Shown here in pieces: positions 2,304 to 49,821 of a DNA stretch of 50,853 nucleotides. The DNA is taken from the sequence record MN158214.1; one strand, given 5' to 3'. Below the pieces are notes generated by a model. It did no database searches. It was given only the letters and a program-made list of their open reading frames with translations, and was not told where the DNA came from. This stretch comes from Escherichia phage BEBK14. Position 1 is the first letter of the stretch, and every line of letters starts with the position of its first letter. A program made the position numbers and the translations under genes.

Positions 2304-3005
2304 TTAACTCCGCTTTCTTGCCCGACGCTCTGCCACGGAAGGGCAAATGTCGCTGATTTTAACGTATCGCGTTTTCTGATGCTCGCCTTCTTTCAGTTCA
2401 CGCATGATGAAAATAACGCTTCCTTTGTTGTTGCCCTGTACTGGTTTACCTGTAAGTGCGGAAGTAAACGCCAGGCGTCCGGTGCGTGAATATTCTGTTC
2501 CATCCTCTTTGTAAACTTCTCCAGTGATCCAGATTATTTCCGCCGCGTGCTGTTGCGCTTCATAAAACCATCCTGTTGATGTGTCGCATGGTAAAAGCAT
2601 GTCGATCTGGTTGTTGTGCTCCATCTGCTCAATCGCTTTCTTAACGAATGGCGTGATGTTGCTGTATGGTGGATTAAGCCAGATGTGCTTATTGCTACCC
2701 CACCAACGCTTTAAGCAATTCGTTTCCTTGCTGTAGAATTTTTCGCATACAGCATTATCTTCGCTTGCTGCCGCGTCGATGTCATAATCACCATATTCGC
2801 TTTCCATCCATGCGACAAGCTCTGATGGCGTAGACCATAAATCGCGCACAACGTCCGGCGTATTGCTTCCGTTATATCGGTTGCCAGTCACTTTGAAATA
2901 TTGATTTGACTTAACTGCCTGGTAATGGCCTCCGGTCGCTAGGGCATTACCTACAAACGTTTCTCGTTCGATTTGTTCAAAGCTGATTTCAATTTCTTTC
3001 TTCAC
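2304..3005 (-). CDS. dam: DNA N6-adenine methyltransferase (phage Dam family)
   Basis: NPPY catalytic motif (WLNPPYSN) and overall resemblance to phage Dam-type MTases; apparent GTG start. Confidence 0.7.
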   Translation of the reverse strand: MKKEIEISFEQIERETFVGNALATGGHYQAVKSNQYFKVTGNRYNGSNTPDVVRDLWSTPSELVAWMESEYGDYDIDAAASEDNAVCEKFYSKETNCLKRWWGSNKHIWLNPPYSNITPFVKKAIEQMEHNNQIDMLLPCDTSTGWFYEAQQHAAEIIWITGEVYKEDGTEYSRTGRLAFTSALTGKPVQGNNKGSVIFIMRELKEGEHQKTRYVKISDICPSVAERRARKRS

Positions 3006-3064: not shown

Positions 3065-3081
3065 TTAACAAAAAATGCTAT
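3065..3081 (-). promoter_or_regulatory. 17-bp box copy
   Basis: CATAAT at 3039..3044, 22 bp downstream; box contains TAG stop of 3078..3497. Confidence 0.5.
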
Positions 3082-3497
3082 TTCAGCATGTAATCAACTG
3101 CGATCATGAATTGCTTGTAACCGTAGGTGACGGCAGCGAAGCCTCCAAGCTCACGCACGCGGCGCAAGAATGCTTTTTGCTCTTTGCTGACCGGAGAAGC
3201 CTTCCCCTTGCCGGACTTGTTGACGCGCTTCATTTCAATAGCCGCAAACGGGTAGCGGCCTTTTAATCCAATCAGGATGATGAAGTCACTCACACCCTTA
3301 ACGAGTCCGGCTTGCTGATCCATCATTGCAGTGGCGATTCCCTTGTCTCCTTCGTTTTTCGTATGCCAGGCCAGCAATTCAGGATGAGCATAAGTCACCC
3401 ATTGAAACGCACCTATCTGGTGCGATTCTTCTTTTAGTGTATCTGTTGGATCTCTTTCGTAAAACTCCAGATAGTCACCTTTATCAGTCATTGCCAT
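3078..3497 (-). CDS. VRR-NUC domain nuclease
   Basis: C-terminal segment resembling VRR-NUC (GKGKASPVSKEQKAFL...); immediately downstream of helicase as is typical. Confidence 0.5.
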   Translation of the reverse strand: MAMTDKGDYLEFYERDPTDTLKEESHQIGAFQWVTYAHPELLAWHTKNEGDKGIATAMMDQQAGLVKGVSDFIILIGLKGRYPFAAIEMKRVNKSGKGKASPVSKEQKAFLRRVRELGGFAAVTYGYKQFMIAVDYMLK

Positions 3498-5523
3498 AAT
3501 TAAACTCCTTCTTGTATAGATTATCTTCGCCCTTACTCGTCTTGCGGTGAGTTACCATCGACGGCTGCATGATGTGATTCGCATATTGCATGATTTTTCT
3601 TGCATTGCGATAGCTTGCCACCATGCCAGCAATACGGCGATCCGGTATATGCTTTAACGCGACTCTACGCCATTTATCCCTGCAAATCTGGCTTTCTGAT
3701 TCAGGGAAAAATATCTCTCGCGCCCTGAATGTGTCGATGCCGTCGGAAAGCTCATAATTGAAGATGATCCCTTTCTGATTTTTCGTCATGTCAACCGAGA
3801 AAGATTTTACCTGGAACCAGTCGTTTTTTGTGTAGTGCTTACCGCTTAACTTTTCGTTAGGGTCAATAAGCGACACATCGCAATGCCTGCACACCCTGGC
3901 CGCAATATCATTCTTAGTACCACAGCCGTGATGGATAACCTTTCTGGTGCGCTGGTCTATCCGATCCTCGCATATCTTGTATTTGAAAAACCATTCGCAT
4001 CTGTTTCCGTTTTCGTCTACGTGCATACAACGTCGAGCGTAATAGCTGTTTAACGTCTTGCATACAGGGCAAGGCTTCGGATCTTTTCCGTTTTTGAATC
4101 TCTTCTGATGCTGCGCCTGCTCCAGTATCGGATCGAAATAAAGCTCTCCTAACTCGTCCATCGTGCCGGAAAAGTCCAAAACAAGATGATCGTCTTTATG
4201 AAAGCCCTGCTCTTTGTGCCACTTTTTAAGCAGTCGCATACCGCGACCTAAAAGCTGAATCAACAAAGTTAGCGATCCAATCTTACGCAGAATAACTGAC
4301 GTATCCCAAAACGGCACGTTAACGCCAGTGGTTAGCGCCTGCACCTGGAAGATGTATTTTACTTTCCCCTCGTATGCTTCTTTCAGCCATTCTTTACGCT
4401 GATTGTCGCCAGTCTTGCCAGTGATGATCCGGTAAGTCGTGCCAGGAGGCAACGCTGCCGCCGCCTCTTTACAATGTCTTTCACCTGCACATGTCACCAA
4501 TACGCCGTTACGGTTTTTACATATTTCGTGCACCTTCTCCATGATGCGCTTAGTCATAGTGGCTTCTTCATGGATCTTCTGTTCCATTTTGCGAAGCGTT
4601 TTCGCGTCAAAATCTGCAACTCCGTCCTCGCTGGATGCCTCGAACTCTGACAGGTCATAACCGAGATCGCCAACGTCGCCAAAATTGGTTGGCACAACCG
4701 AACCGAATTTGATCAGATAGTTGGTATCTATGTTAGTAACCTGTTCTCGCCAAAATCCTTTCTGTTTTTTATCTTCAACCAGGATTGGAACCACGCCGCG
4801 AAATTCCGATCCAGTCATGCCAAATATACGCAATTCGTGACCGTATTCCTTCCTGCAACGACGCATCATTTCCATGATGATAACGGTGTACTGTGTCCTG
4901 CCTGTTCCTTCCATTGGCAAGCCATCTTCCCCAATCAGGAATTCATCACACTCATGGGCGTTCGTGATGTCGTAATCTGGATTCTTTACTTTCTCGCCCT
5001 TTTTTGTCGTCATTTGAATGAGCGATTCGTCATTCTCTATCGCGTCGGCAAGGTCTTCCCAATCCACCTGATGACACTCGTCAATCCCGATAACGTGCGG
5101 CGCGTAGTCTCCAAGTGACTTAAACAGGCCGTTAACTACAGTTCCCTCAGAACCAACAACAATAGGAAAGTATGCGCTTTTGGTTTTCAGTCCAGCACAA
5201 TAAATGGAATTTGGCACGCCGAGATTTGTGATCTCCTCTGAATCCTGATCCACAATTTCAGCCTGTCGCGCCAATACCATCATTTTCAAGCCCATTTTCC
5301 GGCATTGCGCCGCAACCATTGCAAACATCAATGTTTTGCCTGCTGATACTGATGCTTTAATAAAGAATGGATGCTGATAATTGCGCATACGCTTTGCGAT
5401 CTCAGTGTATGCAACAACCTGGTAAGGATATGGCACAATATCGCCAACCGTGAAACGCTCCTGTATTTTTCGGATCGTTTCTTCACCTAAAGCGGCTATC
5501 TGCTTTTCAATATTAGGAATCAT
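3484..5523 (-). CDS. SF2 DNA helicase with Zn-finger-like cysteine cluster
   Basis: Walker A (SVSAGKT), DECH box (GIDECHQ), C-terminal CxxC clusters. Confidence 0.75.
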   Translation of the reverse strand: MIPNIEKQIAALGEETIRKIQERFTVGDIVPYPYQVVAYTEIAKRMRNYQHPFFIKASVSAGKTLMFAMVAAQCRKMGLKMMVLARQAEIVDQDSEEITNLGVPNSIYCAGLKTKSAYFPIVVGSEGTVVNGLFKSLGDYAPHVIGIDECHQVDWEDLADAIENDESLIQMTTKKGEKVKNPDYDITNAHECDEFLIGEDGLPMEGTGRTQYTVIIMEMMRRCRKEYGHELRIFGMTGSEFRGVVPILVEDKKQKGFWREQVTNIDTNYLIKFGSVVPTNFGDVGDLGYDLSEFEASSEDGVADFDAKTLRKMEQKIHEEATMTKRIMEKVHEICKNRNGVLVTCAGERHCKEAAAALPPGTTYRIITGKTGDNQRKEWLKEAYEGKVKYIFQVQALTTGVNVPFWDTSVILRKIGSLTLLIQLLGRGMRLLKKWHKEQGFHKDDHLVLDFSGTMDELGELYFDPILEQAQHQKRFKNGKDPKPCPVCKTLNSYYARRCMHVDENGNRCEWFFKYKICEDRIDQRTRKVIHHGCGTKNDIAARVCRHCDVSLIDPNEKLSGKHYTKNDWFQVKSFSVDMTKNQKGIIFNYELSDGIDTFRAREIFFPESESQICRDKWRRVALKHIPDRRIAGMVASYRNARKIMQYANHIMQPSMVTHRKTSKGEDNLYKKEFNYGND

Positions 5524-43021: not shown

Positions 43022-43430
43022 ATTATAAGTGCTATTTTATGCGTGTCAATGTTTATTTTGTCCGTATAACGTTCGCGTCCTGTTCGCGTTGCCGAAGTTT
43101 TGAGAGAATCACTACATAACCACATGATTTGCAATAAGTTTTTACCGCTTGTTTTCTTTCTGTTCGCGCTGTTAGCGCAATATCGCAATAAAAGTATATA
43201 TACATACTCATTCCACCAGGCGCGCAACTATCCATATATATACCAACAAAGCGACACCGCAACCATCACATACCACACTAACAACGCTAACAAGAAATAA
43301 CACATAAATATATACATAAATAAATATTCTTTATTTTCAATGTATTATAAGGGATTTATTTTGTTTTTTGCGTTCGCAATACATTGAAAAACAGCGCGGA
43401 AACATGTCGCCCTGAAACGCGAACACGCAC
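43022..43430. other. AT-rich divergent control region B with GTTCGCG repeats (possible origin/operator region)
   Basis: GTTCGCG at 43071, 43082, 43162; CGCGAAC at 43418; ATACATAAATAAATATTCTTTATTTT block; no convincing ORF over ~720 bp. Confidence 0.55.
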
Positions 43431-45716: not shown

Positions 45717-45940
45717 TGAGTCAGGACGGATTTTTTGAACGCCTTCAAATGGCAGAAGATGCCGGACTAAATAAAGAGGCGGCGCTTGAAGTTGCATATA
45801 AGATTAAGACTCTTGATGAGGCGCTAGGTGATATGGATATGAATCTTGAATCAAGCGCAATATTTGCAGATCCCACTATGATTGTTAATGATTGTGGATG
45901 CGATTTCGATCCTAGCTGTCCTCGCTGTTTTCCGTTTTGA
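45716..45940 (+). CDS. hypothetical protein
   Basis: 74-aa acidic ORF. Confidence 0.35.
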   Translation: MSQDGFFERLQMAEDAGLNKEAALEVAYKIKTLDEALGDMDMNLESSAIFADPTMIVNDCGCDFDPSCPRCFPF

Positions 45941-45950
45941 GGTAATGACG

Positions 45951-46655
45951 ATGTATAAAGGTTTAATATTCTCCCTATTTGATGGGTCTGGTAAAGCCGT
46001 TAAAGATTGGGCTGATAATGGCTATAAGTGCATTTGCTTTAATGCTGACGGTGGCGATCACGGTGATTACCAGTCAGTGCGCATAAAGCATGAGAATATC
46101 GAATATGTTAACGTCTGGATTGACGATGCTTTTTATGTTAAGGCAATAAATAATGAGTGGGGCAATCCTGATTTTATTATGGCCTTCCCACCATGCACTG
46201 ACCTTGCAAATAGCGGATCTCGCCATTGGGCTAAAAAACGCCTTGAGAATCCATCGTTCCAGGATGATGCCGCCGACACTTGCAGAATCGCGGCTGATAT
46301 AGCTGATTATTTCGGTGTTCCTTACATGATCGAAAATCCGGTTGGCAAGTTGTCAACGTTATGGCGAAAGCCTGATTATACGTTCCATCCGTGCGATTAC
46401 GCTGGCTATCTGCCGGAAGATGATAAGCATCCAGACTTCCCTGATATTATTCCGGCGCGTGATTGCTACTTTAAGAAAACATGCCTTTGGACTGGAAACG
46501 GCTTTATCGTTCCACAGAGAAAACTGGTATTGCCAACCGAGAAGGATAACCCAGGCTGGGCTAAAACTGGTGGCAAATCATCCAGAACAAAGATGATACG
46601 CTCCCTCACTCCGCGAGGATTTGCTCGCGCCGTATTTGAGGCAAACTCAAAATAG
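45951..46655 (+). CDS. putative DNA (cytosine-5) methyltransferase-like protein
   Basis: motif I-like FSLFDGSG, PC motif (PPCTDL), ENV-like (IENPVG); short for a complete C5-MTase. Confidence 0.45.
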   Translation: MYKGLIFSLFDGSGKAVKDWADNGYKCICFNADGGDHGDYQSVRIKHENIEYVNVWIDDAFYVKAINNEWGNPDFIMAFPPCTDLANSGSRHWAKKRLENPSFQDDAADTCRIAADIADYFGVPYMIENPVGKLSTLWRKPDYTFHPCDYAGYLPEDDKHPDFPDIIPARDCYFKKTCLWTGNGFIVPQRKLVLPTEKDNPGWAKTGGKSSRTKMIRSLTPRGFARAVFEANSK

Positions 46656-46668: not shown

Positions 46669-46727
46669 AACGCCCGACCTTGAGTCGGGCATAATGCGTT
46701 TCAACGAAAACAACTGGAGAAAATCAA

Positions 46728-47399: not shown

Positions 47400-48983
47400 A
47401 TGAATTTTTCATTTGAAACAAGTCAGTTATCACCGAAACAAATCATTGAAACCGCCGAATCTCAAGGTATTTCCCCTGTTCGTGTATCCATTCAGGCCAA
47501 CGGATACCGCCAATCTTCAAGCTATTGGGGTCAGGTGGAAGATATTAACGGCGGTAACGACCGCTACCCTGTCATTTCACTTGGGAATGATGTTGATGTA
47601 GTTGGTAAGCTGGCGCGCAATCTTGCGAGATCTGTTCAATTCCCTGAATCATCGGCCTACATGCACTTTATCGGATGTATTTCTGCCGCTATGCTTGGTC
47701 GATTCACAGTTGACTACCACGGAACAGATCAGCCGACCGCGCTTTACGTTGTGACAAGCCAGCCTCCGTCGGCAGGTAAATCCGCGATTAACAGTCTGGC
47801 TATTGCTCCTATGGTTGCAGAGGTTGATCGCATCAACGAGCAACGCAAGAAAGATCGAAAAAAGATACAGGCAAAACTTGCCGGACTACTAAAGGAGATG
47901 AAAAGCGAACGCTCCGGCGCAGATATGGAGATTCTATATCAAGAAAAAGAAGATCTGGAAGAAAAACTAAGCAAACTTTGCGATGTTGTTTTCCCTGTTT
48001 CCGACACAACGCCTGAGGGATTGGCAAAGATAAATAACAGGCAAGGCAACTTCGCGGTTATTTCTGATGAAGCAACCAGTATTAACAGTCTGCTTGGTCT
48101 GACTTACGCTAATAGCGAGCGCAAAACTAACAGCGAACTTGTGTTAAAAGCATGGGATCACGGCCATGTTTCTATCGCCCGTTCTAATGCAGACAATAAC
48201 ATGAGTTTTTTTGCGCTTGGATGTATGAGTGTTATCGCCCAGGATGAAACCATTAATGGCATCATGGATGCAGGATCTCGTGGCATCGGTGTAAGCGAGC
48301 GTTTTCTACTGGTGCGCGAACAGCCGTTAATCGGTACGCGTGTATTTGTGGATGAGAATGGTGATTCAACTTACGAACCAGTAGACGGTGAATTGAAAGC
48401 GCAATACTTTCAGTTGGTGCATAACATTATGAGCGAAATTAACGTTTCTCTGAAAGTTAGCCGTTCTGCAATGCGCGTGCTGAACATTGCACGCCAGGAT
48501 ATGGAACCGCATCTTGCCGACGGCGGAAAGTATTCGCATACGATGCTACGCGGTGCGCTGGGTAAAATGGATAAGCAGGTGATCCGCATTGCTGCCGTTC
48601 TGCATGTGATACGCAATTGGTTTAATCCTGCTGGATACCCGCAAAAGTCTAGAGAGATTGACGTTGACACGATGCAAGAAGCCTTGCTGATGTTCCATGA
48701 ATTGAGCAAAACGTATATCAGCGCGGCGAACGCGTCAGGCTATGCTGGTGATGATGCCGAGATGTCAAAACTGATTGAGTTAATCACCCGCCACGGTAAG
48801 GCAAATAAAGGCGTATTGAATGTCCGCGCTTTGTATGAGGCAGCACGCAAGGTAAAACCTTTCCTGGGGCAAGCTGGCGTGATGAAGCGCATAGAATCGC
48901 AACTGCTTCCGATGCTTGAGCAAAAAAACTACGTTTGTGTTATTAATGGTGTTATTTTTGTGAATCCTGTGTTAATGGGGTAA
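47400..48983 (+). CDS. P-loop NTPase, DUF3987/YfjI-like
   Basis: Walker A-like QPPSAGKS and Walker B-like VISDE; 527 aa. Confidence 0.45.
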   Translation: MNFSFETSQLSPKQIIETAESQGISPVRVSIQANGYRQSSSYWGQVEDINGGNDRYPVISLGNDVDVVGKLARNLARSVQFPESSAYMHFIGCISAAMLGRFTVDYHGTDQPTALYVVTSQPPSAGKSAINSLAIAPMVAEVDRINEQRKKDRKKIQAKLAGLLKEMKSERSGADMEILYQEKEDLEEKLSKLCDVVFPVSDTTPEGLAKINNRQGNFAVISDEATSINSLLGLTYANSERKTNSELVLKAWDHGHVSIARSNADNNMSFFALGCMSVIAQDETINGIMDAGSRGIGVSERFLLVREQPLIGTRVFVDENGDSTYEPVDGELKAQYFQLVHNIMSEINVSLKVSRSAMRVLNIARQDMEPHLADGGKYSHTMLRGALGKMDKQVIRIAAVLHVIRNWFNPAGYPQKSREIDVDTMQEALLMFHELSKTYISAANASGYAGDDAEMSKLIELITRHGKANKGVLNVRALYEAARKVKPFLGQAGVMKRIESQLLPMLEQKNYVCVINGVIFVNPVLMG

Positions 48984-49790: not shown

Positions 49791-49795
49791 AAATA

Positions 49796-49821
49796 AAGGA
49801 GGCTTTAAGCCTCCTTTTTCT
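49796..49821. terminator. rho-independent terminator between early operon and lysis cassette
   Basis: AAGGAGGCTTTAAGCCTCCTT + T5; near-identical stem to 119..141. Confidence 0.65.

Follow-up and report, generated by a model that had tools for sequence, protein, structure and literature searches.

The 234-codon gene analysed here, set in the whole 50,853-nucleotide stretch of Escherichia phage BEBK14 (MN158214.1; the window), most probably codes for a DNA cytosine-C5 methyltransferase of unusually small size. In all likelihood this is an active, AdoMet-dependent enzyme of a distinct, minimal phage-borne family whose members are ~210–260 aa long (PHROG 757). The C5 methyltransferase reading rests on the fold, on invariant catalytic residues and on published experiments with the Dcm of phage K42, and these also bear out the proposal of the sequence-only reading that the genome carries a second, orphan C5-cytosine methyltransferase beside its Dam-family gene. 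The gene is itself an ordinary, already known feature, since the nearest genomes annotate a DNA cytosine methylase and a close homologue, K42/KarlJaspers Dcm, has been characterised.

The reading frame starts with ATG, runs for 234 codons and ends in TAG (ORF list and sequence; Table 1). An alternative TTG start at 45882 would give a 257-aa protein overlapping the preceding ORF, and this longer version is annotated in the FritzSarasin CDS (bas04_0049) and in cluster P0001. It was set aside in favour of the ATG at 45951, which is better supported because both Jahat_MG145, the closest genome, and KarlJaspers are annotated with the ATG, and because the escaper mutation published for K42, 9 bp before the start codon, hits the GAGG ribosome-binding site; an identical GAGG lies upstream of KarlJaspers dcm (sequence comparison). 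The GC-rich hairpin past the stop codon has no T-run, is absent from the output of the terminator scan and is not a canonical intrinsic terminator.

Table 1. Features of the methyltransferase gene, its surroundings and the Dam gene (positions in the window)
Feature	Position	Strand	Basis or remark
Probable short C5-cytosine DNA methyltransferase CDS, phage 'Dcm-like' gene	45951..46655	+	ORF, PHROG 757, annotated relatives
Shine-Dalgarno GAGG	45939..45942	+	8 nt 5' of the ATG; overlaps TGA of the preceding small ORF
Motif I, F10-D-G-S-G14, AdoMet-binding loop	45978..45992	+	Follows strand 5–9
Motif IV, P80-P81-C82, catalytic cysteine	46188..46196	+	PC of DNMT3B, PCQ of E. coli Dcm
Motif VI, E128-N129-P130, ENV counterpart	46332..46340	+	hhalign onto ENV of E. 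coli Dcm
K175-K176-T177, probable motif VIII counterpart	46473..46481	+	Start of strand 177–182 (model)
Short segment in the target-recognition place, residues ~183–216	46497..46598	+	Mostly coil and two short helices; boundaries inferred
R217-S-L-T-P-R-G-F-A-R-A227, C-terminal helix region, motifs IX/X counterpart	46599..46631	+	Conservation, model
Hairpin GCCCGAC-cttga-GTCGGGC	46672..46690	+	GC-rich, 7 bp; 17 nt past the methyltransferase stop codon
DUF3987 helicase-like gene	47400-48983	+	PF13148, E=3e-40; two ORFs downstream of the methyltransferase
T1-type Dam N6-adenine methyltransferase, 233 aa, NPPY	2304..3005	-	Pfam PF05869 Dam, E=8.2e-62

A chance ORF can be excluded, since 1499 of 50,697 phage records hold a homologue (tblastn, lowest E 2e-157) and a profile search (E ≤ 0.001) yields 2048 clusters at 50% identity; at 90% identity the homologue clusters number 3366. 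The carriers include Drexlerviridae, Klebsiella siphoviruses, rV5-like and other large myoviruses, RB49 and others. Nearly all homologues in the 50% clusters are ~210–260 aa long, whereas bacterial C5 methyltransferases of solved structure have 313–388 aa and the catalytic domain of DNMT3 has ~285 aa; this consistency in length points to a distinct short family rather than a truncated gene. The gene had been called unusually short, and at 234 aa it is so, together with its family. The Jahat_MG145 counterpart is 99.6% identical and annotated 'DNA-cytosine methylase', the FritzSarasin protein is 96% identical, and annotations in other relatives read 'DNA methyltransferase', 'dcm' or 'Dcm-like C5 cytosine methyltransferase'. 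One family member (P0263) carries an HNH endonuclease domain, and several other homologues (313–453 aa) contain additional stretches that match nothing in Pfam. Four unannotated 'Campylobacter phage' records (MG065640, MG065641, MG065666 and MG065672, phages A14a/A14b/A12a/A141) match the BEBK14 genome, at ~80% identity over ~70% of its first 25 kb, or hold rV5-like methyltransferase homologues; their Campylobacter jejuni host labels look doubtful.

Against PHROG 757 ('DNA methyltransferase') the protein scores E=4.2e-85, with residues 2–233 aligned to profile positions 13–219 of 247. Scans of the protein against Pfam and NCBIfam gave zero matches even at E ≤ 10, so that the gathering threshold of PF00145 (DNA_methylase) is not reached, and 54 diverse family members yielded four sub-threshold PF00145 matches, the best at E=0.0039. 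The sequence-only reading had named the lack of a significant C5-methyltransferase profile match as grounds for giving up the idea; Pfam and NCBIfam did come back empty, yet PHROG 757 matched, and the absence of a match taken as refutation would have wrongly discarded the idea. Judged by its modelled fold and its catalytic motifs, the protein is a member of the C5 superfamily, though it fails PF00145.

In the standard C5 mechanism, a cysteine attacks C6 of the cytosine, a methyl group is transferred to C5 and a glutamate acts at N3. The BEBK14 protein appears to retain the catalytic core, namely the motif I FDGSG, Cys82 in PPC, Glu128 in ENP and a basic KK(T) strand. Cys82 would attack a flipped-out cytosine at C6, AdoMet would donate its methyl group to C5 and Glu128 would protonate N3. 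Motif I pairs with 'LFDGIATG' of DNMT3B (HMMER), and close homologues all keep D11, G12, S13 and G14. Across the 54 diverse members (33–56% identity), C82 is invariant (54/54), as are E128, P147, Y173, W180 and P188, and at least 90% of the members also hold F79, P80, T83, G89, K96, N129, P130, R139, D171, K175, T177, R217, S218, P221, G223 and A227. The motifs FDGSG and PC are present as originally noticed, but the literal ENV is absent; motif VI reads E128-N129-P130-V131, with the Val shifted one position by a Pro. For the basic motif VIII pattern Q/R-x-R-x-R, the corresponding strand offers only K175-K176-T177. This stretch is probably the motif VIII equivalent, as proposed through superposition on DNMT3A in the K42 preprint (10.1101/2023.08.16.553469), and K175 and T177 each recur in 90% or more of broad-family members. 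The R217–A227 region shows weak BLASTP pairing with the 'RRLTPRECARLMGF' segment of Dcm.

Strand 2 of methyltransferases usually ends in an acidic residue that binds the AdoMet ribose. In this protein and its close relatives the residue in this place, residue 31 (nt 46041–46043), is Asn, with Asp33 nearby, whereas at least 90% of broader-family members have Asp in the column. A catalytically dead or vestigial methyltransferase-like protein, acting by DNA binding only, could account for this Asn and for the very short length without a normal recognition domain, but it is very improbable: the catalytic Cys and Glu are invariant family-wide, KarlJaspers Dcm, closely related to the active K42 Dcm, also has Asn31, and a catalytic-residue mutant of the K42 enzyme loses its phenotype.

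The predicted structure agrees with a C5 methyltransferase. A confident AlphaFold2 model built from 22 homologues (pLDDT 88.5, pTM 0.88) adopts the class I methyltransferase fold and is structurally closest to C5 DNA methyltransferases. In a Foldseek search of the PDB, the top 46 matches were DNMT3A/3B/3C catalytic domains (E ~1e-7), followed by the CP-933R prophage methyltransferase. The structural score was 13.5 for DNMT3B (191 of 234 residues aligned), 12.5 for both DNMT3A and the DNA C5-carboxymethyltransferase (8yf3), 12.2 for the CP-933R prophage enzyme (3g7u), 11.1 for M.HhaI, 10.8 for M.HaeIII and 10.6 for M.MpeI, with unrelated Rossmann-fold proteins reaching at most ~11 and DNMT2 and RNA methyltransferases scoring below the DNA enzymes. 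The structural comparison therefore indicates that the catalytic core is complete. Residues 86–89, directly after the catalytic cysteine, form the sole stretch with pLDDT below 50; a mobile catalytic loop is a feature of other C5 methyltransferases, and in the model residues 86–89 may be such a loop. Profile searches against PDB chains with the single protein, the 22-sequence profile or the 54-sequence profile never went below E ~0.17: DNMT3B was matched at E ~0.2 across motifs I–IV, a match absent with the 54-sequence profile, and M.HaeIII at E=0.21. The DNMT3A/DNMT3B catalytic domains differ from the phage protein in that they are only 15–17% identical to it, are longer, read CpG and form oligomers with regulatory domains, and nothing here indicates a direct evolutionary link to DNMT3.

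The classical type II C5 methyltransferases (PF00145; M.HhaI, M.HaeIII, 3g7u) share with the phage protein the fold and the order of motifs I, IV and VI, but are 313–388 aa long and have a target-recognition domain several times larger, which in these enzymes spans roughly 80–100 residues. In the AlphaFold model, no large target-recognition domain separates motifs VIII and IX. Between strand 177–182 and the C-terminal helices (211–218 and 222–232) there are only ~30–35 residues (~183–216), consisting of coil and two short helices, and the initial impression that there is no room for a normal recognition domain is thus confirmed. Within this segment P188 is invariant and a 2-aa indel separates close relatives.

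The protein resembles E. coli Dcm and M.EcoRII, which methylate the inner cytosine of CCWGG, in its reported target motif, its annotation name and its C5-methyltransferase fold. E. coli Dcm differs, however, in having 472 aa, and its similarity to the phage protein is negligible (BLASTP E=5.7; hhalign probability 0.2%, E=0.27), although the non-significant hhalign alignment with the E. coli K-12 enzyme still pairs PPC with PCQ and ENP with ENV. An orthologue of E. coli Dcm was rejected because neither BLASTP nor hhalign reached significance, and 'Dcm-like' is therefore a functional label only.

Experimental support comes from work on phage K42, which is 95.4% identical to KarlJaspers/Bas06 (10.1101/2023.08.16.553469; according to papers that cite it, the preprint later appeared as Wang et al., Cell Rep 2024;43:114857). 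All four K42 escapers from retron Ec86 (Eco1) are disrupted either in a 711-bp 'dcm' gene or at the base lying 9 bp before it, expression of K42 Dcm is toxic only alongside the retron, and 34 of 35 Ec86-sensitive phages carry such a Dcm (10.1101/2023.08.16.553469). LC-MS against a synthetic standard detected high 5mC in msDNA with wild-type K42 Dcm, and low 5mC with the C82A/E128A/K175A/K176A mutant or the empty vector; the mutant is inactive and has lost the phenotype (10.1101/2023.08.16.553469). Furthermore, changing CCTGG in the msDNA stem-loop abolished defence (10.1101/2023.08.16.553469), and later papers take the triggering of retron Ec86 by Dcm as established. The N6-adenine methyltransferase of Bas51 in the PLoS Biol 2025 retron paper is a different enzyme.

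The KarlJaspers (Bas06) Dcm belongs to the same family as the BEBK14 protein and is 86% identical to it over the full length (711 bp, 236 aa). The two differ by a 2-residue deletion in the 234-aa BEBK14 protein at ~198 and by 30 other substitutions, and since the gap at ~198 is the only one, C82, E128, K175 and K176 carry identical numbers in KarlJaspers Dcm. Given this identity and the conservation of all four mutated residues, the BEBK14 enzyme would be expected to trigger retron Eco1. In cells carrying retron Ec86/Eco1, methylation of the msDNA stem-loop would be sensed and infection aborted, as seen for K42.

The same experiments bear on what is transferred and to which substrate. A transfer other than methyl, of the carboxymethyl type, or action on another substrate, such as DNMT2-like m5C formation in RNA or tRNA, is highly unlikely: LC-MS detected 5mC in msDNA with the K42 homologue, DNMT2 and RNA methyltransferases score below the DNA enzymes in the structural comparison, and one homologue of 563 aa (P0258) fuses the short C5-methyltransferase domain to a D12-class N6-adenine DNA methyltransferase (PF02086, E=2.5e-48), which points to DNA as the substrate. 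The suggestion of the sequence-only reading that the protein might be a diverged enzyme with another substrate is thus disfavoured, given that 5mC appeared in DNA upon expression of K42 Dcm.

Within the methyltransferase reading preferred here, CCWGG as the target is only partly supported. The preprint assumed CCWGG from E. coli Dcm and backed it by msDNA mutagenesis only, without methylome mapping (10.1101/2023.08.16.553469). In the literature on phage methylomes (5mC in Drexlerviridae, 'Dcm-like'), nothing bearing on the specificity of the family was found. In MG1655, the dcm+ strain used in the K42 Dcm assays, msDNA 5mC is low until the phage enzyme is expressed, and the phage and host enzymes may therefore differ in specificity or in access. 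An active C5 DNA methyltransferase with a specificity other than that of Dcm (recognition of a shorter or looser motif, modification of the outer cytosine in CCWGG, or preferential action on hairpin or single-stranded DNA) would be compatible with this low 5mC, with the ~30–35 residues at the recognition position, with DNMT3 enzymes, which read a 2-bp site, being the closest structures, and with the lack of a detectable relationship to genuine Dcm. It would also be in line with the preprint authors' mention of toxicity of the phage enzyme itself and with the requirement for both CCTGG cytosines in retron triggering. Such a specificity is nevertheless rather unlikely, since mutation of CCTGG in the msDNA abolishes the response, CCWGG is specifically exempt from the strong palindrome avoidance of the genome, and the protein-bound, multicopy msDNA may simply lie out of reach of host Dcm. 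Somewhat more doubtful still is a minimal DNMT3-like enzyme that does not copy host Dcm and in which the ~30–35-residue segment gives a different or looser specificity.

Across the whole genome (1-50853), restriction-type palindromes are avoided to an extreme degree, with many 6-bp ones found 0–2 times against 10–29 expected (Table 2). CCWGG and GATC are essentially unavoided, as expected if they are methyl-protected; this lends indirect support to CCWGG as the target, with host Dcm and Dam being an equally good cause.

Table 2. Observed and expected counts of selected sites in the genome
Site	Observed	Expected
TCCGGA	2	28.6
GGCGCC	1	21
AGCGCT	0	18
AAGCTT	0	13
GATATC	0	12.5
GGATCC	1	14
GAATTC	2	15
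GGWCC	0	24
CCSGG	10	27
CCWGG	125	136
GATC	253	286

During infection, the enzyme would methylate phage DNA and any other accessible DNA. With the reported target, CCWGG (the EcoRII/Dcm site), such methylation would pre-empt CCWGG-specific restriction in hosts without Dcm, and the methyltransferase may thereby bring an anti-restriction benefit. The broad anti-restriction protection once envisaged from two orphan methyltransferases is conjectural: in the BASEL survey, the restriction resistance of Drexlerviridae did not follow their methyltransferase content in any recognisable pattern, and the one documented effect, triggering of retron Ec86/Eco1, harms the phage. Warwickvirus phages are generally restriction-resistant in the BASEL survey, and palindrome avoidance, rather than methyltransferases, may lie behind this resistance.

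The window is a T1-like coliphage; most of it matches Escherichia phage Jahat_MG145 (Drexlerviridae, Tempevirinae, Warwickvirus) at 98–99% identity. The methyltransferase gene lies in a run of + strand ORFs from ~43.7 kb to ~49.4 kb, bounded by a divergent intergenic region (~43.0–43.7 kb) and a hairpin at 49795-49817, in agreement with the rightward operon described earlier; early expression of the run is assumed. The hairpin ending this rightward cluster has a 10-bp stem and T-runs on both strands and is bidirectional terminator-like. A perfect sigma-70 consensus (TTGACA, 16 nt, TATAAT; 12/12) at 43022-43049 on the - strand points leftward in the divergent intergenic region. In a promoter and terminator scan of 41.5–50.9 kb, sites were no more numerous than in shuffled sequence, and the scan therefore does not define the boundaries of transcription units. 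The order of small + strand ORFs, methyltransferase, two small ORFs, DUF3987 helicase-like gene and small ORF is conserved; KarlJaspers, of the genus Hanrivervirus as opposed to Warwickvirus here, has likewise a small ORF, dcm, two small ORFs and the DUF3987 helicase. Among the neighbouring ORFs scanned against Pfam, no Vsr-type match was found. The NPPY-type Dam-family gene was correctly recognised and matches PF05869, but lies on the minus strand. Adjoining Dam at 3078-5523 (-) are a VRR-NUC nuclease and a ResIII/Helicase_C helicase.

If the specificity does prove to differ from that of Dcm, it would explain why dcm+ cells alone leave retron Eco1 untriggered, and the protein would represent the smallest sequence-specific C5 DNA methyltransferase scaffold. 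The family is carried by ~1,500 phage records (~3% of sequenced phages) and covered by no curated HMM library; being invisible to Pfam and NCBIfam, its members are often labelled 'hypothetical protein' by automated pipelines. Carrying the gene predicts sensitivity to retron Eco1, which is relevant for the choice of phage or host.
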